Shown: piece by piece, positions 140-30,070 of the stretch
How the letters are laid out: each line of letters begins with the position of its first letter
Position numbering within the stretch: position 1 is the first letter of the stretch
Virus record (IMG/VR): IMGVR_UViG_3300017766_002981
Location: 1-39,001 of that record
Strand: one strand, 5' to 3'
Length of the DNA: 39,001 bases
Source of the DNA: a virus
Taxonomy: Duplodnaviria; Caudoviricetes
Position numbers and translations under genes: made by a program
Notes under the pieces: model-generated
Database searches by the model: none
The model's input: only the letters and a program-made list of their open reading frames with translations
What the model was told of the DNA's origin: nothing

Positions 140-503
140 CGACGATCCGGTAACGTTGAAAGAAGCCGTCGATATCGTGTATCGGGGGAAGATCGCGGTT
201 TCGACCTTGCGCCTGCTTGCCGACCGCGGGAACGTTCACATCTTCAAAGTCGGCCGCCGCTGGTTCACCACCTTGCGCAGCGTCCGGGAAATGAAAGACC
301 GATGCCCAGGAAATCAAAAGGCGCTCGCCTCTACCTCGACCGCGAGCGCGGTCAATGGGCTATCCGAGATGGACAGAGTTTCGTCCGCACTGGTTGCGTT
401 GAGTCAGACAACGAGGGCGCTGAAAAGGCCCTCGCAGAATACATCGCCAGCAAATACAAGCCAGCCGCCATCGCCTCGCCGGCCATCGCGGATGTCCTGC
501 TAA
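126..503 (+). CDS. xis: Excisionase-like HTH protein overlapping int
   Basis: TTG start with GGAGG 5 nt upstream; N-terminal VTLKEAV..STLRLLADRG..FKVGRRWFTT is a typical Xis/MerR-like winged HTH; directly upstream of int. Confidence 0.7.
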   Translation: MTPSDDDPVTLKEAVDIVYRGKIAVSTLRLLADRGNVHIFKVGRRWFTTLRSVREMKDRCPGNQKALASTSTASAVNGLSEMDRVSSALVALSQTTRALKRPSQNTSPANTSQPPSPRRPSRMSC

Positions 504-1294
504 TCTACGCCAAGGAACGACTGCCGAAGACCAAGGCCGCGGACAAAGCCGCGCACAACATTTCGAATCTGACGCCCTTCTGGGGCAAGCTGAGAGCGGA
601 TGACGTGAACGCTGAGAACTGCGAAGCATACGCCAAGGACCGGCCGGCATCCGCCGCGCGCCGGGATCTGGAAGTGCTGCGCGCCGCCCTCTTCTACTGG
701 CACAAGAACAAGAAGCAGTTGGCCATGGCGCCGCAAGTCGTGCTGCCGGACAAGGCTGACCCGCGCGAGCGCTGGCTGACCCAGGAAGAGGCTCGCCGGC
801 TGCGCAAGGCCGCCATGAAGCACCAGCACCTTTACCGATTCGTCCTGCTCGGGCTGAAGACCGGCTCCCGGTCGGAAGTGCTGTTCAACCTGACATGGGA
901 CCAGATCGACCTACGCAGCGGCGTGATGACCCGGAAGTCGGCCGGCGAGACTGTGGCCGCCAACAAGCGGAAACCGCCGGTCAGGCTGGGGCGGTCGCTG
1001 GTCCGCCTCATGAAGAAATGGAAGAAGAAGGACGGCAAGATCAAGCACGTCGTCCACTACGAGGGCCTGCCCATCAAGAAACTGCGCCGGTCGTGGGATG
1101 CCGCGATCGTCGATGCGGGGCTGGACGAGGAAGTCACGCCGCACACCCTGCGCCACACGCGGGCGACCTGGCTGATGCAAAAAGGGATCGACCCATGGGA
1201 AGCGTCCGGGCACCTCGGGATGTCGCTAAGAACGCTGGAAAATGTGTACGGAAAGCACCATCCGGACTTCCAATCTAACGCGTCTGAGGTATGA
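302..1294 (+). CDS. int: Tyrosine integrase
   Basis: Catalytic motifs TGSR, HTLRHT, HLG and VYGKH; adjacent to a tRNA-derived att core. Confidence 0.95.
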   Translation: MPRKSKGARLYLDRERGQWAIRDGQSFVRTGCVESDNEGAEKALAEYIASKYKPAAIASPAIADVLLIYAKERLPKTKAADKAAHNISNLTPFWGKLRADDVNAENCEAYAKDRPASAARRDLEVLRAALFYWHKNKKQLAMAPQVVLPDKADPRERWLTQEEARRLRKAAMKHQHLYRFVLLGLKTGSRSEVLFNLTWDQIDLRSGVMTRKSAGETVAANKRKPPVRLGRSLVRLMKKWKKKDGKIKHVVHYEGLPIKKLRRSWDAAIVDAGLDEEVTPHTLRHTRATWLMQKGIDPWEASGHLGMSLRTLENVYGKHHPDFQSNASEV

Positions 1295-1334: not shown

Positions 1335-1430
1335 GCTAAGTAGCTGATATTATGGTAGGCGGCGACGGATTCGAACCGCCGACCCTCTCGGTGTAAACGA
1401 CTGAGCCTCTATAGATATCAGATACTTAGC
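1335..1430. promoter_or_regulatory. Pair of inverted IHF-like sites flanking the att core (1335-1350, 1415-1430)
   Basis: GCTAAGTAGCTGATAT / ATATCAGATACTTAGC, 15/16 inverted match; each contains WATCARNNNNTTR. Confidence 0.7.
1353..1400 (-). other. att core: 3' half of tRNA-Val(TAC) from anticodon loop to CCA (not a complete tRNA)
   Basis: Minus strand TCG-TTTACAC-CGAGAGGGTCGGCGGTTCGAATCCGTCGCCGCCTACCA has anticodon TAC, T-loop GTTCGAATC and CCA; no D arm or 5' acceptor strand. Confidence 0.9.
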
Positions 1431-4293: not shown

Positions 4294-4623
4294 ATGGACC
4301 TCGCCCTACGCAAAGTCGGCCACCCACAGGCCCCGAACAATTACCGCGTCATTCTGAAGATCGATGAGACGGAATACGAAGTCGGCTCGATCGGGATGCA
4401 GGTGTTTACGTCAACCGACGTCGCATGGACTTGGGGAATCGATACCGTGGTCCCGATGCGGACGCTGCAGACCGAGGGCCGCGGTAGAGACCTGAAGGAC
4501 TGCATGAGAATGTTCAAGGCGGCATGGGAGAGGTTTGCAAGTGACCCGGCGGGCCTGACTGAGTTTCTGGAGGCCAAGCGGCGCACAAAAAGAAGCCCGG
4601 CCACCTTTCGGCAGCCGGGCTAA
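4294..4623 (+). CDS. Hypothetical protein
   Basis: 109-aa ORF ending in the convergent terminator hairpin. Confidence 0.65.
   Translation: MDLALRKVGHPQAPNNYRVILKIDETEYEVGSIGMQVFTSTDVAWTWGIDTVVPMRTLQTEGRGRDLKDCMRMFKAAWERFASDPAGLTEFLEAKRRTKRSPATFRQPG
4587..4621 (-). terminator. Rho-independent terminator
   Basis: AGCCCGGCTGCC-GAAA-GGTGGCCGGGCT followed by TCTTTTT. Confidence 0.85.
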
Positions 4624-4680
4624 GTCTAGGGAGGCGTTGCCATAGGCAACAACTGCCGGCCAGAAGGAAAACCGGCAGTG
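4587..4680 (-). ncRNA. MmgR/suhB (alpha-r8)-like small RNA
   Basis: Two hairpins, single-stranded CCTCCCTAGACTT, then a GC-rich hairpin with GAAA loop and TCTTTTT; the core matches my recollection of the MmgR family. Confidence 0.65.
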
Positions 4681-7403: not shown

Positions 7404-7511
7404 ATGTGGGGGAAGCGGCTCAAAGTAGCTGCGGTTTGGATCTTCAACATCGCGGTAACAATTGCCGGGGTGGCCATCGCCTTTTTCTTTTGGGCGACGA
7501 CGTGGATGTAA
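7404..7511 (+). CDS. 35-aa single-TM peptide (not in ORF track)
   Basis: MWGKRLKVAAVWIFNIAVTIAGVAIAFFFWATTWM; ends 13 nt before the GT-C start. Confidence 0.5.
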   Translation: MWGKRLKVAAVWIFNIAVTIAGVAIAFFFWATTWM

Positions 7512-7524
7512 CCTGGGGGCTCGC

Positions 7525-9327
7525 TTGAAACTTCTTCTTGCTTCTCTGCGCCTGTTAAGGGCCGAGGCCGCCAGTCTTTTAAAGATCGATATTCCTGCCG
7601 CGCTGATGGTCGCCGCGTTGCTGGCGCTGCTTCTCCCTCACATCACCCGGCACGCCGATAACGCCGCGATGCTGCATACTTTCGTTGATGATGAGCCGCT
7701 GTTGACCATGCAGATCGACGGCATGACGGCATGGCCGTGGGGAAACCCATCAACTTACCTCGACGCCAGAAAGCACGTTTCGCATCCGGTCCCCGCGCAT
7801 TGGCTCAACATCCGCTATGACGGGATCGTTTATTACGGCGGCCTCTACCTTGACTTGGCGGCGCTGGTTTGGACGCCACTCAAGATAGCCGGCTTGCCGA
7901 TCTTCCCTACCGTGCCGATTATTCTTCGGACGCTCAGTCTTTTGTTCGCAGCGTTCACCATTCTTGCCGTCTACAATTTCGGACGAAAGAACTTCGGACT
8001 GTTCGCCGGGCTATTCGGCGGGCTGCTTTTGCTCACCGAGTTTCATTTCATTGCGCTTGGCAGCTTCGCGCACCCGGACACACTCCTGTTTTTCTTGACC
8101 GTTCTCGCCCTGCCGCTCTGCTTAAGACACGCGAGAGAGGGCACAACCGAAAGCCTCGTCGCCATTGGCATCGTTGCCGGGCTCGCCCAAGGCGCCAAGA
8201 TGGGCGGGCCGCTGCTGGTGCCGATCGTCGTGGCCGCAATTGTCTACAGTACGCAGAACGTTCCGACGATCCTGCGCCGCGGCGCTGCCGTCTTTGGCGC
8301 TGCCGTTGCCGTGTTCTTTTTGACGACGCCTTATGCCCTGGTTGACCCATATTTTCGCCAATCGTGGACGGGGTTGACCGCACTGTTCTCCGGTCAGTCG
8401 CCCATCCAGGTCGTTACATTTACCGGTTGGCTATTGACCGTTGTCTCAAAGGTCGGCGTGCCGTTACTAATCACCGCTGGTATCGCGCTGGCGGCGGCGA
8501 TGTTGCCGCGCTCCAAGGAGCGGTTGCCCTTGCTGTTCGCGGCGCTGTTGGCCGCGTGGATCATTGCCTGGTACGCGCTATTCCAACGGTTCTGGGTCCA
8601 GCCCCAGTATCTTATCGTTTCCTACGCCCTGATCGCGGTCGTTGGCTGGAGTCTCGCCGATCGGTTGGTCGCCCTGCTGCCCATACCCAGAGCCGCGATT
8701 GCCTTGATCGCGGTCTGCACCATCGCAGCCGTCGCGGCCACGCATCAAAGCCGTGTCATCACCGGCGCATTTTCGATTCCGGTCATCATGTCGGGTTGGC
8801 GAGACGCCCCTCAATACCAGGTTGGCGAGTGGCTTTCCCGGAACAAGCAGGGCGGCGATACGGTCCTGTTCGATACGCAGGCCTATTTCGATCCTAAGGA
8901 TTTCCCGCGGCAATTCGCCAACGGCGGCCCGATCAAGTGGGACACGTTAGAACGTGTGAAACCTGACTATTTCGCGCTTACTATCTATGGCCCGTATCAC
9001 TGGATGGCCCAGAAGATGGCCAGCCAACGAAGCGAGCAGTGGGACCCGGACTATTACAACATGCGGCTTTATCAAGATCTGCTCGGCACTGACCCGGGCA
9101 ACCCGACGCCGACTAACGCTCTTCCGCACATCACCGCATTGCGCCGTTTCGACCCGCCAAAAACGGACACCGAATGCGATACCATATTCGCAAAGATCGC
9201 TTGCGCAGTGAATGCCTCGATGGGCGATGGCATGGGCGGTAGAGGTCCGACAACATGGTTATTCAAGCTAGACCACAGCGAGATGATGAAGCGCGTGAGC
9301 GAGACTAGCCCCTATAAGACGCAGTGA
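7525..9327 (+). CDS. GT-C (ArnT/PMT-like) integral-membrane glycosyltransferase, moron
   Basis: Acidic DDE motif after TM1, AHPD and GAK motifs, about 11-12 TM segments plus a soluble C-terminal domain; opposite strand to the late genes; TTG start with GGGGG RBS. Confidence 0.8.
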   Translation: MKLLLASLRLLRAEAASLLKIDIPAALMVAALLALLLPHITRHADNAAMLHTFVDDEPLLTMQIDGMTAWPWGNPSTYLDARKHVSHPVPAHWLNIRYDGIVYYGGLYLDLAALVWTPLKIAGLPIFPTVPIILRTLSLLFAAFTILAVYNFGRKNFGLFAGLFGGLLLLTEFHFIALGSFAHPDTLLFFLTVLALPLCLRHAREGTTESLVAIGIVAGLAQGAKMGGPLLVPIVVAAIVYSTQNVPTILRRGAAVFGAAVAVFFLTTPYALVDPYFRQSWTGLTALFSGQSPIQVVTFTGWLLTVVSKVGVPLLITAGIALAAAMLPRSKERLPLLFAALLAAWIIAWYALFQRFWVQPQYLIVSYALIAVVGWSLADRLVALLPIPRAAIALIAVCTIAAVAATHQSRVITGAFSIPVIMSGWRDAPQYQVGEWLSRNKQGGDTVLFDTQAYFDPKDFPRQFANGGPIKWDTLERVKPDYFALTIYGPYHWMAQKMASQRSEQWDPDYYNMRLYQDLLGTDPGNPTPTNALPHITALRRFDPPKTDTECDTIFAKIACAVNASMGDGMGGRGPTTWLFKLDHSEMMKRVSETSPYKTQ

Positions 9328-21384: not shown

Positions 21385-21740
21385 CAGTGCACTTTCGCTT
21401 TCATGCGGGAGAGCAGCGCCTTCGCGTGATCGACGGCGGTATTGATGCGCGCCTGCTGCTTGGATTCGTGGCCAAGCTCTGGATTGTGGAATAGGTCGAA
21501 AAACATGATGTGCCCGATGTCGAGCTTGTCCTCGCGGCGCGAGACGAAATACATCGTGGCGTAGCAGCCGCCGGGGAAATCGTTGGCTTCGACGCCGAAC
21601 TTGCTGAACGTGCGCTCCGGCGTCGCGGACTTGCCGTCGGCGATGAACACCTCGCGGCCGTCGACCGTCTCGCGCGCGACGGGGACCAGCCCGGCGGTGC
21701 GGAACATCGATTCCATTTTGTCTTTGGTTATGACTTGCAT
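21384..21740 (-). CDS. Hypothetical protein
   Basis: 118 aa, TGATG-coupled to terL and portal. Confidence 0.7.
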   Translation of the reverse strand: MQVITKDKMESMFRTAGLVPVARETVDGREVFIADGKSATPERTFSKFGVEANDFPGGCYATMYFVSRREDKLDIGHIMFFDLFHNPELGHESKQQARINTAVDHAKALLSRMKAKVH

Positions 21741-23188
21741 CAGATCCTCGTACTCGCAATCGGCTGCATCGGCGGGCCGCCGCTGTGGCCCATTCTCGAA
21801 ATCACAGAGAGCGAAACGCCGTACCGCTTCATCATGGCCGCGTAGAAGACGGCCTTGAGAATGTCGTCACGCTTCGCCTGGATGATCCCGTCCTTGCGGT
21901 GATAGCTTCGCTTCTCTTCGAAAAACTCGGCTAGATGCGCAAACACCTTGAACCGGCCGGTCTGCATCCGCTCCAGCATCTCGTCCACAATCGGCTCGAC
22001 CGGTTGCGGTCCGCCCTTTTCGTCCTCGCCCGGAACCTTCGGATAACGCGCCGACTTGTTCAGCATGTTGACGCCGTGGTCGCGGTAGTGATCCGCGAGA
22101 TTACGGCCGCCAGACTTCTCCCGGTTCATGCCATCATGCGGCCACGCGACCGGGACTTGCCTGTTCGTCTTGTTGAACCATGCCGCGTGATACGGCGCTT
22201 TCTCGTTCGCCTTGCGGTAGCAGTCGATCAGATAGATGACGTCCTGATCACGATCCCAAGCCAGTTCGCAGCCAGCGGCCGGATGATCCATGCCGAAGTC
22301 GCAGCCCTTGATCCGCGCCCAATGTTTCGGGATCGGGAAAGCCTCGACCCTGATCTCGTCGTCGCCGATCGGGAAAATCGCGCCCTCGCCCATCATCGGA
22401 ATGCCCTTCGTGCGGGCGTCCCGTTCATGCGTTCGGTACGATGCTCCGAGGCGATCCTTGTCCTCGCGCGACAGATGCGGCGCGTCTTCCCATGTCGCGC
22501 CCTTGAGAAACACGCCGGAGCCGTCGACGCCGCCCAACTCCTGAAAGTGCTGCACCAGATCGGTCAAACCGCTCAGCGGCGTGAAGGTCACCAGAACAAT
22601 CCCGTGCGACGTCAGAATGCGGGTCTGCGCTTCCGAGAAAATCTTGTAGTCGTCGGGCTCCTCGTCCATCCACACGACATGCGGCGCGGTGCCCTGCCAC
22701 TTCTGCCAGCCCTGCTCGTATGTTTTCAGCGAACACGTCGACAGCCCGCCGGATTTGTGGCGCACCGTGAACGTCTCGACCACGTCCTTGACGCCGGCTT
22801 GCCGCGTCCTTGGCGAGCCGACCAGCGACCCGCGCGGCACCCAGCCGGTCCCGAGCTTTTCACCGAGGCCGCCGAGCAATTCCGCCTGAACGATGTCCTT
22901 CGACGTTTCGTTTGTCGGCGATCCGGTCCAGATCAGCACCGGATGCGCAAACCGCTTGCCTTCCCACCAGGCCGGGTAATCGCCGGTCATGTGGAACACG
23001 ACTTCCGCCGCGGCGCCGACCGTCTTTCCAACCCGGTTCGCCGCCATCAACATGCGTTCGGGATGACCGACCCCGGCTGCGTGAAACTCAGTCTGCCAAG
23101 GATACGGCTTGTATTTGTCGATCTTCCGGCCGGCGAGCTGCCATTCCAGCTTGCGGGTGAGTTCGGCAATCTTCGCGAGATCAGTCAC
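21740..23188 (-). CDS. terL: Terminase large subunit, P22 gp2-like
   Basis: PYPWQ, Walker A AANRVGKT, Walker B VWMDEE, coupling motif TFTP, nuclease GCDFG..HP, WPHDG and DD. Confidence 0.95.
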   Translation of the reverse strand: MTDLAKIAELTRKLEWQLAGRKIDKYKPYPWQTEFHAAGVGHPERMLMAANRVGKTVGAAAEVVFHMTGDYPAWWEGKRFAHPVLIWTGSPTNETSKDIVQAELLGGLGEKLGTGWVPRGSLVGSPRTRQAGVKDVVETFTVRHKSGGLSTCSLKTYEQGWQKWQGTAPHVVWMDEEPDDYKIFSEAQTRILTSHGIVLVTFTPLSGLTDLVQHFQELGGVDGSGVFLKGATWEDAPHLSREDKDRLGASYRTHERDARTKGIPMMGEGAIFPIGDDEIRVEAFPIPKHWARIKGCDFGMDHPAAGCELAWDRDQDVIYLIDCYRKANEKAPYHAAWFNKTNRQVPVAWPHDGMNREKSGGRNLADHYRDHGVNMLNKSARYPKVPGEDEKGGPQPVEPIVDEMLERMQTGRFKVFAHLAEFFEEKRSYHRKDGIIQAKRDDILKAVFYAAMMKRYGVSLSVISRMGHSGGPPMQPIASTRI

Positions 23189-23804
23189 TGAGCCAATGCT
23201 TTCTGATCCATGGCTCGTCAGTCAGTTGATGCGGCTTCTCGTCGCCGTGAAAGTAGACGATCCGCGCATCGCGCAGTCCGTGCTGCTTCACCGTGCCCTT
23301 GTAGGAAACGACTTGGCCGGGAAACAAATCGTCGATGAGAGCGTGCTTCTGCGCGCGCATCCACGCCATGTCGTTTTCGCCGTTCCAGTCACGGTAGACG
23401 CCCTGTTGACCCGCCGGAACGAGCGCGACGCCGTTGCAGGCAATTTCCATCTGGTTCGGATCTCGAGGCAGCGCGATGGGCACGTCATCCCGCAGGCAGT
23501 ATTGCGCCATATGGTTCAGCGGGCCCGTCACTACCGTGTCGAGGCCGACCAGGATCATCGGCACGCCAAGCTTGTATGGCTCGATGCAGTCGGCGTATCC
23601 CGGCGTCGGCGCCTTCATGCCCTCCTGCAAAATCTCCTTCGGAAGATCGCGCTCCCGATCGGTGAACAGCACGAACCGCCACGGCACATTCAGGTTGCGC
23701 GCGAAGCCCTCGTAAAGCCGCGTCACCCAGCTTTCGTCGTAGCATCTCGAAAACGGATAGGAACTCGCGTTCGCGTCCCAGAGCAGCGATGCAATTGTGA
23801 TCAC
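23181..23804 (-). CDS. GT-A fold glycosyltransferase-like protein
   Basis: RLYEGFARNLNVPWRFVLFTD, GLDTVV at the DxD position, IVYFHG.EKP; GTGA-coupled. Confidence 0.7.
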   Translation of the reverse strand: MITIASLLWDANASSYPFSRCYDESWVTRLYEGFARNLNVPWRFVLFTDRERDLPKEILQEGMKAPTPGYADCIEPYKLGVPMILVGLDTVVTGPLNHMAQYCLRDDVPIALPRDPNQMEIACNGVALVPAGQQGVYRDWNGENDMAWMRAQKHALIDDLFPGQVVSYKGTVKQHGLRDARIVYFHGDEKPHQLTDEPWIRKHWLSD

Positions 23805-24319
23805 GCTTCGATCATTCTCTTTTCGCGCCACTCCGGCTTGATCGGAACCATGCCGCCGTCACGACGTAGAAGAAAATCAGCCGGCACATCGTGTCGCGCA
23901 GTCGCATTCGCCGCCACCATCGCGCGCTTACCGATCGTCACGCCGGGCAACACCACCGCATTTGCGCCGATGCTCGCGCCGTCCTCGACGCGCACCGTCA
24001 CAAAGCCGCGCACCAGCAAATCCGGGCGGAAACCTTCCTTGTTCGTGGTCGGCCAGAAGTCGTTGCACAGCACCACGTTCGGACCGATGAACACGTCATT
24101 TCCGATCACGAAGCCGGGGCCGATGTCGACCCCTGGCGAGATGATGCAGCGGTCACCGATCTTCGGTCCGTCGAGCGTGGCACACGACGCCACGACGCAA
24201 TCCTCGCCGAGCACCGTTCCGCGGATCACGGAAGCGAATTGCCAGACCCGCGTGCGCGCGCCGATGGTTGCGCCGTCGACATGCGCCTTCTCATGGATGT
24301 AGGCGCTGTCGGATATCAT
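23801..24319 (-). CDS. Hexapeptide-repeat (LbH) acetyltransferase, WxcM/FdtC-like
   Basis: IGARTRVWQF, IGNDVFIGPNVVLCND, GASIGANAVVLPGVTIG; GGAG RBS. Confidence 0.85.
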   Translation of the reverse strand: MISDSAYIHEKAHVDGATIGARTRVWQFASVIRGTVLGEDCVVASCATLDGPKIGDRCIISPGVDIGPGFVIGNDVFIGPNVVLCNDFWPTTNKEGFRPDLLVRGFVTVRVEDGASIGANAVVLPGVTIGKRAMVAANATARHDVPADFLLRRDGGMVPIKPEWREKRMIEA

Positions 24320-24854
24320 GGGCGCTCCACAGTCCAAGAATACGGCTAGAGCCGGGTGGATCATCGGTTTGCCATTGCGGTGCGGGCAGCCTGAACGGGG
24401 CGGCCTGCAGATTGAGAGGCCGGAAGTCGCCGGCGCGCTGGATATCGTCGTTCTGCGAATTCGTGTGCGACGTCATGAGCAGCCATTCCGCGGCGCCCGT
24501 GAAATTGCGAAGCACCTTCCACACCGTCGCGTTGGGAAGATGTTGAAGGAAGTCCCGGCTCAGGATCAGATCCACCGTCGGCAACACGCCTTCCGCGATG
24601 TCGCCGACCATTACGTTCGGCTGGTGCAGCTTCGCCGTTTCGATATGCCAGCGGTCGAAGTCGACGCCGAAATATTCGATCCCCTTCAGGCTGACGTGGC
24701 GCATCCAGTTCAGGTCGCCACATGGCGCATCGAGAACGCTCTTGACGCCGAGGTCGTGAAGCAGCGCCGGAATCTGTTCCCGGATGTGCGCCGTCGCTTC
24801 CATTGTCGACCCGCCGCCGCACAGCGTCTCAGGCAGGCCGCCGGAGAAGTGCAT
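24291..24854 (-). CDS. Class I SAM-dependent methyltransferase
   Basis: SVLDAPCGD motif I, YFGVD, DLILSRDFLQHL; start could be 24872. Confidence 0.85.
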   Translation of the reverse strand: MHFSGGLPETLCGGGSTMEATAHIREQIPALLHDLGVKSVLDAPCGDLNWMRHVSLKGIEYFGVDFDRWHIETAKLHQPNVMVGDIAEGVLPTVDLILSRDFLQHLPNATVWKVLRNFTGAAEWLLMTSHTNSQNDDIQRAGDFRPLNLQAAPFRLPAPQWQTDDPPGSSRILGLWSAHDIRQRLHP

Positions 24855-25483
24855 CACGGCGCGCCCAGCCATTCTCTCGTGCGCCCGCTCATCGAGCGCA
24901 CCTTGTCATCGAAGGCGAGTTGCTTCGCCCGCTTCCAGTGCTGATCCATCCCGCCGCCAACCGGGCCCGCGGTTTCCGTCGAGGCGAACGTCGTCTTCCG
25001 CCACGGCGGTTCGCCGTTGTGCGGCCCGTCGTCGAGCGGCAGACCACACAAAACGATCCGCTCATATCCAAGCCCGATCGCCACCAGCACGGCGCCGAGG
25101 CCCGACGTTCCATGTCCGCCCCACGGCCACCGCCATTTGACGCCCTGGTTGCAGGAGTGAATGTGCTTCGGCTTGGCGCAATCGGTGTATTCCTGCCGGC
25201 GAGCGGCGATGAACTTGTGCAGGATGTCCGGCTGGTTCGAATAGCAGTGCTCGATATCGCCGGGCAGCATCTCGACGATCTTGTTGACCGTCATGATATC
25301 CCAGCCGTCCTTTCGAACGGTCCCGCACTTGCTGTCGTCCCGGAAACCGAAAGCCTCGAGATCGTCCCATATGCAGCGCGCGTCCGCGCAGACCACGACG
25401 TTCTTTCCGGCATAGGTGCCTGCGATCGACGGCAGCGGGAATTCAAACCCGCCATAGCCCGTCATCAGATCCCTAAGCGCCAT
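24854..25483 (-). CDS. Putative Maf/DUF115-like (sialyltransferase-type fold) transferase
   Basis: GTSGLGAVLVAIGLGYERIVLCG motif and IMTVN strand. Confidence 0.5.
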   Translation of the reverse strand: MALRDLMTGYGGFEFPLPSIAGTYAGKNVVVCADARCIWDDLEAFGFRDDSKCGTVRKDGWDIMTVNKIVEMLPGDIEHCYSNQPDILHKFIAARRQEYTDCAKPKHIHSCNQGVKWRWPWGGHGTSGLGAVLVAIGLGYERIVLCGLPLDDGPHNGEPPWRKTTFASTETAGPVGGGMDQHWKRAKQLAFDDKVRSMSGRTREWLGAP

Positions 25484-26099
25484 AGACGAACTGTCCGATG
25501 TGGCCGAGCTTGATCGATGGATCGCCCATGATCTTGAAGCCCGCCTCACGCGCCTTACGGCAGAAATTGTAATCCTCGCTCTCGAACACGCCGTTGTGGA
25601 TCAGCGTGTCGTAAAGCAGCGGCACCTCGCCGTGCGGGCCCTGGTATTTCTGCGCCCTGCCGACCAGTTCCTCGATCACCTCGCGCTTGATCAGCATGAA
25701 GCCGGTGCCGGCGTAGTCGACCTCGAACGGTTCGGCCGGGCAGTCCTTCAGATCGACCAGCTTTCCCGCGCGCCACGCCGCGACCGGATTGTCGAGCCGC
25801 TTCATCGCGTAGAAACCGACGGCGACGTCGACCTGATGATTCCAAAGCCTGGCGACATCTTCCGGACCAAAAACAATATCGGCGTCGAGCCACATCAGAT
25901 GCGAGTGCTGCGACTGAAGGAACGTCGCCGTCATCTCGTTGCGCGCGCGGTGCACCAGGCTTTCGTTCCAGCCGATCAGCCAGTCATGCGCCACACCGGC
26001 GCGCGTGAGTTCTTCCTTCAGGTTCATGCAGGATTGAAAGTGCTGGGCGGTGAGCATCCCGCCGTAGCATGGCGTGCAGAACAAAATCGACGACATCAA
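25473..26099 (-). CDS. GT-A (GT2-like) glycosyltransferase
   Basis: TPCYGG, SLVHRARN, WLDAD (DxD), GTGFMLIKR, SEDYNFC and LGHIG. Confidence 0.85.
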   Translation of the reverse strand: MMSSILFCTPCYGGMLTAQHFQSCMNLKEELTRAGVAHDWLIGWNESLVHRARNEMTATFLQSQHSHLMWLDADIVFGPEDVARLWNHQVDVAVGFYAMKRLDNPVAAWRAGKLVDLKDCPAEPFEVDYAGTGFMLIKREVIEELVGRAQKYQGPHGEVPLLYDTLIHNGVFESEDYNFCRKAREAGFKIMGDPSIKLGHIGQFVYGA

Positions 26100-26356
26100 T
26101 TATATCCGCGCTTGTCGGTGGTTGCGACGAAGCCCGGCGTTGCCTTTGACAGCCGCCCCCTTGCCCCCGCCTTCAACGTGACTTCCTCGCGCGCCGCGCC
26201 CTTCATGTGTTCGACCGTCCGCCCGAGGTCGCGATATTGCGGCAGGCCTTCCATGTAAAAGTCGACGGGCAGTTCCAGAATTTCCGTGGAGACGGTCGGC
26301 GTGCCGATCTGAAAAGCACCCAGTTGAAAAGCGTTTGGCTGGAATGCGTTCGGCAT
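26096..26356 (-). CDS. Small protein with N-terminal AFQ repeats
   Basis: MPNAFQPNAFQLGAFQ; abuts or overlaps both neighbours. Confidence 0.65.
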   Translation of the reverse strand: MPNAFQPNAFQLGAFQIGTPTVSTEILELPVDFYMEGLPQYRDLGRTVEHMKGAAREEVTLKAGARGRLSKATPGFVATTDKRGYN

Positions 26357-27031
26357 TTAGGGTTGAACCACCCACTTTTGCGGCGAGAACAGGCCGAACT
26401 TAGCCGAAGTCCAATTGCTCAATTTCGACATCACGTAGAGCAGATCGGACGGCTTGTAATATCCGAAGTAAAGCGCTTCAGAGATCGTCTGTTTGAACGC
26501 CGCCAATTCAGTACGGAAGTAGAACGACACGAAGGCAGACGCCGGCACCGATACGCCGGATGTGATCACCGGCCTGAACAGGCTATTAAACGAGACGCCC
26601 GTCACCATGAAACCGATCGTCGGGTCCATCAGCACGGGCACCGTCCCGAGCGTCAGCAGTTGAACGTGGTTTCCAGCATAGCCGCCGTTCACACCAACCG
26701 CCTTTTGATTGTCGGTATCGACGCCCAAGAGCGCGGCCAGTTTCCACATGACCGTGACATAGGTGATGCATGTCAGGGTCGCCGCGTTCAACAGGTCAGG
26801 CAGCGCCCAAACGTCAATGCCGGAAGGCTCCGCGCCATAGGTCGAATTTTCGTAGGCAAATACGCAGCAGAACGCGAGCTTGATCTGATCCTCGGACCAC
26901 GTTGACGACCAGCCCGCCGACCCGACGCCAGGGTGAGCGAGGAACGCGGTCCTGCGAGCGTCGTATAGAGCGACGACCGCATCCGGATCCGCGCGGACAT
27001 CGGCGAGTTCGCAGGACGTAAAAAATGGCAT
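26357..27031 (-). CDS. Transglutaminase-like (Cys-His-Asp) protein
   Basis: LTC88ITY, GNH122V and LMD136PT have the order and spacing of the transglutaminase-like core. Confidence 0.6.
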   Translation of the reverse strand: MPFFTSCELADVRADPDAVVALYDARRTAFLAHPGVGSAGWSSTWSEDQIKLAFCCVFAYENSTYGAEPSGIDVWALPDLLNAATLTCITYVTVMWKLAALLGVDTDNQKAVGVNGGYAGNHVQLLTLGTVPVLMDPTIGFMVTGVSFNSLFRPVITSGVSVPASAFVSFYFRTELAAFKQTISEALYFGYYKPSDLLYVMSKLSNWTSAKFGLFSPQKWVVQP

Positions 27032-28965
27032 CAGGTGTACTGCCCGCCGGTTGCCGCTGATCCCGCGGAGTTGCCGGGGAAATAGCTTGCCCCTCCTGCG
27101 TTGGTGTACATGACGCCATTCGCGTTCACTTCGTACCGCTTGCCGGTCACAGTTCCACCGTTCGTGAACGTCATTCCGAACGCCCCCAAATATCCTAAGT
27201 TCGAGCAGTAGAAATTCGCAGAGAAGAACGCCGGAGAGTTCGAATAGGTGATGGTTCGCTGTTGAACCACGACGTAGCCATTGTTCAGAATGTGATAGGC
27301 GGCGCCGCCGCTTACGGCGTAGTTACCCGTTGCAGTGATGAAGCTGCCCGACAGCGCGTACATATGCGCCGTAGTAGCCGATCCGAAGTCCAGGCTGTCG
27401 AAGTTGACGGCAGAGCCGTTGCTGACCTGAATGCACGCTACGGCCGAGGTGTTCGTCAACTTCATGCTGTTGACTTGCCACTTCGCGCCGGCCGAACTCG
27501 TGATGCAGTTGGAGGCACCCGTGCTGATGATCGTCGTCGCACCGACGCCCGTCAGGATGGGCACGAGAGATCCGAGAACGACCGGAAGATCGAGCGCCGC
27601 CGTAAATGTCCCCGCCTGAACCGAGATCGTAAGCTGGTAAGGCCCGCAATCGAGCGCGCCAGCGACGGCAAGGGCTTTCGTGATCGTCAGGAACGCGCCG
27701 CCCGAGGTGTTCGCCAGGCCGTTATTGCTGTCGCTGCCGTCCGTTCGAACGTAGTAGGTCGTCGCCCCGACCAAAGTAGTGCGTCCGCCAGCAGCGGCAG
27801 CCCATGAGGGAAAGCCCGAGGCAAGGGTCAGAACTTGCCCGTCAGAGCCCTTCGCCAGCCGCGACCACGTCGATGCGCCGCGGTAGAGGATATCTCCAGA
27901 AGCCGCACTTCCGATGAAGTCCAGCGCCTCCGAAAGCGTCAACTCTTCCGCGTCGCCCGCCGATGCTGTCTTGCGGCCGAGCATCCGGCTCGTGGCCGAA
28001 ACGTTCTGCAGCTTCGCATACGTCACCGCGTCGTCGGTGATTTCTGCCGTGGCTATCGTCGTGCCGACCGACCATGCGTCGGTCCCGGTTCGGCGCGCCA
28101 GGCCGGTCGAGGCAAGAGCCTCAAGCGCCGCAAGATCGTTGGCCAGCGCCCACGCCGGATTGCCCGCAATACCGGCGGGATTGGAAATGGTGATGCCGGC
28201 CGCCGGTGCGGTCAGCGTTCGCGCGGCGCCCGTGCCCGCTCCCGTGTGCGCCCAGAACCCGTCCGTCGAATTGGCCGCCAGCGCCGACAGATCCGCATCA
28301 AAGGCCTGGACGTTCGTCCCGATGACCGCCCCAATCGCCGCCCGCGCCGCCGTCGCATCCGCCAGCGCCAGAAACGCCCGCCCGTAGGAGGTGGTCGTGA
28401 GCGCAGCGATCGCCGTCAGGTCCGAATCCAACGGCTGGAACCCCGTCCCCAGCGCCGCCAGATCCGTCATCAGTTGCGCCAGCGTCCGGTTCACCCAGGC
28501 CCCGGACTTGCGCTGTATCACATCGTCGTTCGACGGGCTGATCCCGGCAATCGCCGTGAGATCACTATCCAGCGGCTGATACGCCGCATTCCCCTCCGCC
28601 GGCGTCAAAAAGAAACTGTCCACCAGCGCCGCCAGCGCCGTCGCATTCGCAAGCTCAAGCAGCCCGCGGCCAAAGCTCGTCGTCGTCAGCGCCGCGATCG
28701 CGGTCAAATCGCTGTCCAGCGGCTGCTTCGCGTCCAACGCCGCCTGAAGGCTCGCAACGTCCGAAATCGCGATCGCCAGGAACGTCTTCACATCCGCCGC
28801 CGTCAGCTCCTCCGTCGCACCATCACCGCCCGTCAGCCGGCCCAGCAGCCGCGACGTCGCCTGAACCAGCACATGCTCCGCATTCCACTCGTCCGGCCCA
28901 ACCTCGTTCGGGTTGTGGTCGTCAGCAATCGGCGACGTAAACGAATGCTTGAGCGAGATCACCAA
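27031..28965 (-). CDS. Second fibre protein (head or auxiliary fibre) with C-terminal beta-helix-like domain
   Basis: 644 aa, Ala/Thr/Gly/Ser-rich; QPLDSDLTAIA repeats; YYVRTDGSDSNNGL..AFLTITKAL beta-helix cap motif. Confidence 0.75.
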   Translation of the reverse strand: MVISLKHSFTSPIADDHNPNEVGPDEWNAEHVLVQATSRLLGRLTGGDGATEELTAADVKTFLAIAISDVASLQAALDAKQPLDSDLTAIAALTTTSFGRGLLELANATALAALVDSFFLTPAEGNAAYQPLDSDLTAIAGISPSNDDVIQRKSGAWVNRTLAQLMTDLAALGTGFQPLDSDLTAIAALTTTSYGRAFLALADATAARAAIGAVIGTNVQAFDADLSALAANSTDGFWAHTGAGTGAARTLTAPAAGITISNPAGIAGNPAWALANDLAALEALASTGLARRTGTDAWSVGTTIATAEITDDAVTYAKLQNVSATSRMLGRKTASAGDAEELTLSEALDFIGSAASGDILYRGASTWSRLAKGSDGQVLTLASGFPSWAAAAGGRTTLVGATTYYVRTDGSDSNNGLANTSGGAFLTITKALAVAGALDCGPYQLTISVQAGTFTAALDLPVVLGSLVPILTGVGATTIISTGASNCITSSAGAKWQVNSMKLTNTSAVACIQVSNGSAVNFDSLDFGSATTAHMYALSGSFITATGNYAVSGGAAYHILNNGYVVVQQRTITYSNSPAFFSANFYCSNLGYLGAFGMTFTNGGTVTGKRYEVNANGVMYTNAGGASYFPGNSAGSAATGGQYT

Positions 28966-29240
28966 CGCAAACCCTTCCTCATCGCGATGATCCCCTCAGA
29001 AGCCCGTACAGCGCGCCCGTCCGCAGCAATGCCACCAAGCCCAGCCAATCGAACCCAGCGCACCCACGCCGCCCCGCAGAGTCAGCAAGCCGCCTTCCAG
29101 CACGTTCGCCAGACCTCAATCACCGATGTCGTTTGAAACGGCCGCGCGTCAGATGGGGGCTAGAGCTCGAACCCGACGACGGCAGGGGGTGCCCCGGCCC
29201 CTCCCCCAGCCACCAGGTGGACAAGGTCGAGAACGGCTGC

Positions 29241-29339
29241 TAACCTATTGATATTGCTTGCGAGAAAGACCGACATCACACATCGCATAACTGCCATTAT
29301 GGAATGTTTTCGTAATTCCTTAATGATATCAATGCGCTG
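29241..29339. promoter_or_regulatory. Two oppositely oriented IHF-consensus sites (29241-29253 minus, 29327-29339 plus)
   Basis: TATCAATAGGTTA is an exact WATCAANNNNTTR match; TATCAATGCGCTG has one mismatch. Confidence 0.6.
29280..29307 (+). other. XerC/D dif-like recombination site (11-6-11)
   Basis: ACATCGCATAA-CTGCCA-TTATGGAATGT versus E. coli dif GGTGCGCATAA-TGTATA-TTATGTTAAAT; 7/11 identity per arm with intact inner CATAA-N6-TTATG. Confidence 0.65.
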
Positions 29340-29487
29340 ATGAGTGTGATGTGTGCAGATCATGCGCTGCGGACATGGCTCAAAGGCCTATTTCAGCCTG
29401 AAAACCCGCCCTCCTGGCCCGTTTCAATCCACACACACACGGGCGCGGTCTAGTACAATCCAGCCCCTTTGCTGGTCATCCTGCTGG

Positions 29488-30000
29488 TCAGTGTTTTGTG
29501 GCGCCTTCGTCGGGCAGCGTGACGCCGTGCTTTGCGGCGATGATGTGCGCGTCGATGCCGGTCAGGGCTGCGAGGTCGCGGACGGTCTGGATGGGATCGT
29601 GCTGGCTGGTGACGTCGCGGATTTGCTCGACGTGATGGCCTGCGACCTTGCCGCGGAGCTGCTCGGCCTGGACCGCGGCGCCGATGTTGCCGCTGTTGAG
29701 GGCGATTTCCTTGAGGCGTTCGAGTTCGCGAAGATGGCCTTCGAAGGTTACGACGGCGGTCCCGAGGCCGGCTTGGCGGGCGGCGGACAGCATTGCAGAG
29801 ATATTGGCCTTGGCGCGGAGGCGCGAGGCGGCCTCGATGATGGTGGAATTCAGCATGTTCGAGCAGTCGTAGGCCATGCGGTAGGCATCGGCCCCGGTCT
29901 TGCCGGCGAGTAGGCCTTCAACGAACTTCTGCTGCTGTGCAGTGAGGTCGGGCAGTTCGGCCGCTGGCTCGGTGGAGCCTGTGAGTTTCTGACGCGGCAT
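29488..30000 (-). CDS. terS: Terminase small subunit
   Basis: LTAQQQKFVEGLLAGKTGADAYRMAY...AASRL HTH; AAVQAEQLRGKVAG; AGGA RBS. Confidence 0.85.
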   Translation of the reverse strand: MPRQKLTGSTEPAAELPDLTAQQQKFVEGLLAGKTGADAYRMAYDCSNMLNSTIIEAASRLRAKANISAMLSAARQAGLGTAVVTFEGHLRELERLKEIALNSGNIGAAVQAEQLRGKVAGHHVEQIRDVTSQHDPIQTVRDLAALTGIDAHIIAAKHGVTLPDEGATKH

Positions 30001-30070
30001 GTGCACTTTTCCTGGGCTTGCTGCTGCAGCGTTTTCTGTTTTTGAGACAGGTGCGGATGCAGCAGTATTA

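Follow-up and report, generated by a model that had tools for sequence, protein, structure and literature searches.

A dif-like site beside the terminase small-subunit gene of a temperate podovirus-like phage, a candidate target of host XerC/XerD

Described recombination systems and the phage site

In phage P1, a tyrosine-recombinase site (loxP) lies near pac, just downstream of the packaging start, and its recombination by Cre has been proposed to circularise redundant DNA. The temperate podovirus-like phage analysed here (record estimated to be 98% complete; "the window" is the whole stretch of 39,001 nt that was analysed) carries a dif-like site beside terS, at which the recombinase would instead be host XerC/XerD. 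The record holds no Cre-like gene, and hence no phage-encoded cognate recombinase of the P1 kind.

Chromosomal dif sites of Rhizobiales, recombined by XerCD with FtsK, share the 11-6-11 layout of the phage site (predicted sites in supplementary file 2 of PMC3025954, and the passages on dif in PMC2731167). Alignment with host dif, as the preliminary description of this DNA had advised, gave 10/11 matches in the XerD arm, 8/11 in the XerC arm and 1/6 in the centre against these Bradyrhizobium/Rhodopseudomonas sites, and Bradyrhizobium-type dif also has an IHF-like box. The phage site differs in lying beside terS, in its centre, in having boxes on both sides, and in the absence of a permissive KOPS array. 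Plasmid cer and psi sites (ColE1, pSC101), as section 9 of PMC5357621 presents them, are similar in that host XerCD acts on the element's own DNA, at a core unlike host dif and next to accessory sequence, for which the phage has a candidate. However, the candidate accessory protein of the phage is IHF rather than PepA, ArgR or ArcA, its centre has 6 bp (8 in cer), and its site is linked to packaging genes, in a tailed phage that itself encodes an integrase. Elements that integrate by host Xer (IMEX: CTXphi, VGJphi, TLCphi/XafT, GGI) likewise carry a phage-borne dif-like site and rely on host Xer, but they are filamentous phages or islands that integrate at host dif (PMC5357621, PMC6744903), whereas the phage here has an incompatible centre and a separate tRNA att with integrase.

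No description of a dif-type site beside a tailed-phage terminase was found in the open-access literature; judging by titles and the openings of abstracts, the reports retrieved there dealt with phages that have no tail, or with other subjects (the search did not extend to subscription journals or to supplements on bioRxiv).

The site, its flanks and their resemblance to host dif

The genes and attachment site to which the dif-like site is compared are as follows.

302-1294, plus strand: tyrosine integrase, the sole one in the record (PF00589)
1353-1400, minus strand: attP core, corresponding to the 3' portion of a tRNA (TAC anticodon, by inspection of the sequence), with IHF-like boxes at 1337-1349 and 1416-1428
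21740-23188, minus strand: terL, P22/LUZ24/phiEco32 superfamily (PF03237 and PF17289)
29488-30006, minus strand: terS, terminase small subunit (PHROG 51, E 5e-8; 248 homologues, of which some bear this name)

The terS product matched PHROG 1595 as well as PHROG 51, and had no Pfam match. terL lies 6.1 kb downstream of the site and is not adjacent to it, with tail-like, methyltransferase and glycosyltransferase genes between. This gap of ~6 kb between terS and terL (23181-28965) contains tail-fibre-like, glycosyltransferase-like, methyltransferase and hexapeptide genes, a possible virion or surface modification cluster. Separately, a membrane glycosyltransferase gene (PMT_2) on the opposite strand (7462-9327, plus) may be a moron involved in lysogenic surface conversion. 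The att core is common to tRNA-like contigs. ARAGORN detected no complete tRNA, no attL/attR junction was seen, and the core had no match in 5 + 5 Rhizobiales genomes. Two statements made from the sequence beforehand, that the att core and the dif-like site have no sequence in common and that there is no second recombinase, proved correct: the att region and the island have only 7-mers in common, and there is one Phage_integrase match in this near-complete record.

29241-29253, minus strand: predicted IHF-consensus box, XerC side (0 mismatches)
29280-29290, plus strand: putative XerC arm ACATCGCATAA (8/11 to the B. japonicum/R. palustris dif XerC arm; its inner 8 bases belong to the 16-base core of 151/201 genomes)
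29291-29296, plus strand: central hexamer CTGCCA (1/6 to GGTATA; differs from host dif centres, with none in the 150 host matches listed)
29297-29307, plus strand: putative XerD arm TTATGGAATGT (10/11 to the B. japonicum dif XerD arm)
29327-29339, plus strand: predicted IHF-consensus box, XerD side (1 mismatch)

The dif-like 28-mer ACATCGCATAA-CTGCCA-TTATGGAATGT (29280-29307) lies 180 bp beyond the terS stop at 29488 (terS being on the minus strand), within an island (29241-29339) of 38% GC in a genome of ~60% GC. Its core, CATAA-N6-TTATG, occurs once in the 39,001-nt window and in 0/100 shuffles. The preliminary description had reported an AT-rich island about 180 bp past the terS stop, an 11-6-11 site with a dif core, and two opposed IHF-consensus boxes bracketing it; all three were confirmed, the boxes with the strands and mismatches given above. 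A small ORF overlapping the site (29160-29363) is treated as spurious. Boxes were called with the IHF consensus, which was not above chance across the window (6 found compared with 8.8 expected), with 4 of the 6 situated at the dif-like site or the att region. In side and orientation the XerD-side box agrees with the box found most often at other phage sites and with that of Bradyrhizobium dif. A genome scan requiring dif together with an IHF box returned ~170 chromosomal sites, mostly Bradyrhizobium, with the box ~19 bp beyond the XerD arm, and therefore the pairing is not exclusive to phages. Among Bradyrhizobium-type chromosomal difs this box is conserved, while it is rare in 30 unselected Rhizobiales difs.

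Under the rule of a 6-bp centre given in PMC2731167, the site has the layout of a dif site, with two 11-bp arms like host XerC and XerD boxes around a hexamer. The 16-base core was found in 151/201 genomes of Rhizobiales (the order of Bradyrhizobium), nearly always once, and a reversed control in none. The site is set apart from a chromosomal dif by its place in a phage record and by its hexamer, CTGCCA being absent among the matches listed (150 of the 160 Rhizobiales core matches). By these comparisons the phage site is a mimic of host-type Rhizobiales dif arms with a private centre. An mmgR/suhB-like small RNA predicted at 4580-4654 (minus strand; 36.4 bits, below the Rfam cut-off of 41; E 5e-4) likewise points to an alphaproteobacterial host.

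Recurrence near terminase genes in other phages

The core was found in ~290 IMG/VR stretches (26 plus an estimated 260), compared with 30 for a shuffled control. The 146 loci taken forward fell into 120 clusters, of which 91 with long flanks entered the gene count and 29 with flanks of ~300 bp did not. Terminase genes were detected using seeds from PHROG-confirmed loci, and PHROGs were run on the nearest or longest ORFs of the remaining loci (211 of 230 picked ORFs, with 12 scanned earlier and 7 beside phage-plasmid-like loci skipped; 55/55 control ORFs). A terminase gene lay within 2.5 kb of the site in 47/91 clusters and 0/20 controls (P 5.5e-6), a contrast that is inflated by seeds taken from the test set and by controls that are mostly coding. 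The site was inside a long ORF at 0/47 terminase-linked loci and 14/20 controls, and since control matches fall mostly in coding, AT-rich DNA, the background for intergenic sites is understated. The direction result is not inflated in this way: TerL was downstream of the site in 41/41 placed loci. The site followed terS in 20 loci and preceded it in 5, orientation was the same as in the window in 41/46 loci, and in two more near-complete records terL lay across the contig end. A 50% identity threshold divided the 39 site-linked TerLs, for which a quick tree was also made, into 18 groups, and a 30% threshold into 10. Dif-type arms near terminase genes are present in dozens of tailed phages that are unrelated to one another.

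The same arms occurred near a rep gene at phage-plasmid-like loci (13/91 clusters). At 13 loci in large phage-plasmid-like contigs, the alpha-type dif is mostly 400-550 bp upstream of rep (PHROG 22671), and is likely a host-Xer dimer-resolution site. In two further viral contigs (L274 and L282, the latter also with head genes), alpha-type dif cores adjoin a tyrosine integrase gene, suggesting possible dif-integrating tailed elements.

IHF-like boxes were found within 50 bp of 30/41 terminase-linked sites, 3/13 phage-plasmid sites, 6/20 controls and 2/30 unselected host difs. The predicted boxes are thus enriched at terminase-linked sites relative to host difs, and are candidate accessory sequences of the cer/psi kind.

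Sites with beta/gamma-type arms were present in ~450 stretches (80 loci, 64 clusters), with a terminase nearby in 22/64 (two of them weak matches) and the site upstream. The E. coli-type centre TGTATA was seen in 0/22 terminase-linked clusters and 15/42 other beta/gamma clusters (P 0.0013 in a test that used 14). Among the 47 alpha sites there were 35 different hexamers, two of them host-type. The 6-bp spacing was kept, the XerD-proximal A was retained in 40/41 sites, and arms were preserved while hexamers and flanks diverged across clusters. Members of one TerL family (70-83% identity) differ, some having alpha arms and some beta/gamma arms. This switch argues for host Xer, rather than TerS, as the reader of the site.

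A blastn search of the island against cultivated models returned chance matches only, 15/16 cultivated or deposited phage regions had no site within 2 mismatches, and five whole phage records had no Rhizobiales-arm site near terL. Liberibacter phage SC1 has an annotated cos region between terS and terL, with no dif there. The cultivated Pelagibacter phage HTVC106P carries a symmetric palindrome resembling dif at the corresponding position, upstream of terL, as do related contigs of the HTVC010P type (loci L536:614-635, L550, L556, L558 and L570), with a terL match in 9/27 loci that have the pattern. P. ubique is reported to be without dif or Xer (PMC2731167), and a search for a SAR11 host dif found none; given that report, the HTVC106P palindrome counts against a host-Xer reading.

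Close relatives of the phage mostly lack the site: it was found within 3 mismatches in 2/28 terS relatives (with a few more in other relative searches), and the exact core in 1/9 near-complete relatives. Among the phage's gene products are exonuclease VIII and a Sak4-like ATPase, which could circularise DNA by homologous recombination, and because of this and of the relatives without it the site is an optional aid. The earlier proposal of a host-Xer system next to terS stands in part, being favoured by the host-type dif mimic, its recurrence beside terminase in many unrelated phages, the enrichment of IHF boxes and its distinctness from the integrase att, with its absence from most close relatives, and the IHF-like box beside dif on Bradyrhizobium-type chromosomes, on the other side.

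Candidate roles of the site

Three further elements lie around the site.

29131-29163, minus strand: element E2, a direct repeat of E1 290 bp downstream, candidate terminal-repeat signal or promoter (conserved after terS in the lineage)
29185-29207, minus strand: G/C-run element downstream of the site (G5/C5 runs), with one KOPS-like octamer directed away from the site
29421-29453, minus strand: element E1 (CTAR...TYSAAAC, 33 bp) in the upstream flank, candidate end or packaging signal or promoter (conserved in terS relatives whether or not they have dif)

The dif-like site is located between the 33-bp direct repeats E1 and E2, which are the only two strong copies in the window; held-out relatives also score. 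Their spacing is 200-360 bp in 8 relatives of the lineage, and both persist where dif is absent; they may signal the ends of a short terminal repeat or serve as promoters. Within 250 bp downstream of the site, C5 runs lay in 31/46 loci and G5 runs in 22/46, compared with 5 and 2 upstream, and the runs track terminase direction in most loci. An identity of the G-runs with KOPS was rejected, as the motif showed no clear enrichment (8 in 34 kb near the site and 25 in 162 kb far from it) and the runs followed terminase rather than dif direction. Contig ends fell within 300 bp of the site at 14/37 truncated sides (P 5e-5), on both sides of it; several coincide with G/C runs, where sequencing may have broken off. 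Depth over assembled contigs was flat and revealed no ends. TerL of the phage is 38% identical to that of P22, 40% to LUZ24 and 35% to phiEco32, and neither TerL similarity nor the tree decides between headful and short-repeat packaging.

We consider it somewhat probable that host XerC/XerD carry out recombination between two copies of the site within phage DNA, most plausibly circularising the incoming linear genome. If the first cut fell within terS or close by, or else at E1/E2, the site would be present at both virion ends. After injection, XerC/D would bind the two direct copies near the ends, and IHF would bend the flanks and aid synapsis without FtsK. Strand exchange would probably follow the FtsK-independent, XerC-first route of mobile elements, and the resulting circle would be the substrate needed for integration or replication. 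The private hexamer would block exchange with host dif and permit exchange of the site with itself. Xer recombination needs FtsK or accessory factors and is mostly FtsK-independent in mobile elements (PMC6744903), and mobile-element routes are set out in PMC5357621, including section 9. Should the first cut be at the downstream G/C run, with packaging proceeding in the direction of terL, there would be no second copy of the site, and none of the 5 records searched had two core copies.

A broader form of this circularisation proposal is tentative, and in our judgement rather more apt to fail than to hold: many unrelated terminase lineages, in several host classes, would have independently evolved a host-matched dif mimic in a terminal repeat, XerCD with IHF would be a common unrecognised RecA-independent means of circularisation, and here E1 and E2 would mark the ends of a ~290-bp repeat.

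Host XerCD could alternatively serve to resolve dimers of the circular phage genome, or to process concatemers formed in replication, in the manner of cer/psi, with no circularisation of virion DNA, which we regard as unlikely though a genuine contender. Private hexamers suit any reaction of a site with itself, resolution is the obvious role where the same arms lie near rep in the phage-plasmid-like clusters, and small plasmids exploit host Xer in this way according to section 9 of PMC5357621. Resolution would work from a site located anywhere, yet in every placed locus, across many TerL groups, terL lies downstream of the site; the fixed position could, for its part, merely reflect a shared main non-coding region.

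It is distinctly improbable that the site only binds proteins and is not productively recombined, with XerC/D or a phage protein, next to the packaging signals and together with IHF, giving the DNA a shape suited to cleavage by terminase, or halting a translocase. IHF aids packaging in lambda and P1, and the site lies between conserved E1 and E2, ahead of a G/C-run element that tracks terminase direction. The SAR11-type palindromes would also fit, being symmetric and in a host reported as Xer-less (PMC2731167). However, members of a single TerL family differ in their arms according to host-type dif, which is unlike a TerS site, the 6-bp spacing and the XerD-proximal A are retained, and E1/E2 persist without dif.

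Integration at host dif through a second attP, as in IMEX (CTX, VGJ, TLC, GGI), is very unlikely. Intact arms would bind XerCD, and IMEX use dif-like sites, some tolerating partial central mismatch in the account of them in PMC5357621. The phage hexamer, however, shows no homology on its XerC side to the centres that are common in hosts (1/6 to GGTATA, and at most the last 2 bases matching GATGCA-type hosts), and no copy of the phage site was found at host dif. A terminase was beside 0/80 host dif loci from the dif + IHF genome scan and none of 13 atypical or second host sites, which together with hexamers that avoid the host centre argues against such integration. The phage moreover has its own integrase and tRNA att, and integration at this site would split terS from terL. 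Least probable of all is a neutral remnant of host terminus DNA from aberrant excision or packaging, with which the patchiness in close relatives and the neighbouring IHF box of Bradyrhizobium dif are compatible, but not arms kept while hexamers and flanks diverge, nor a position and orientation fixed across unrelated lineages.

The closure of phage genomes after injection, whether short-repeat or headful, is understood in few models. The host-Xer route to circularisation, if true, would be a third exploitation of XerCD besides plasmid resolution and IMEX integration, and would make xerC, xerD and ihf host factors for many environmental phages. In metagenomic phages, dif-type arms could also help to predict the host and to locate genome ends.
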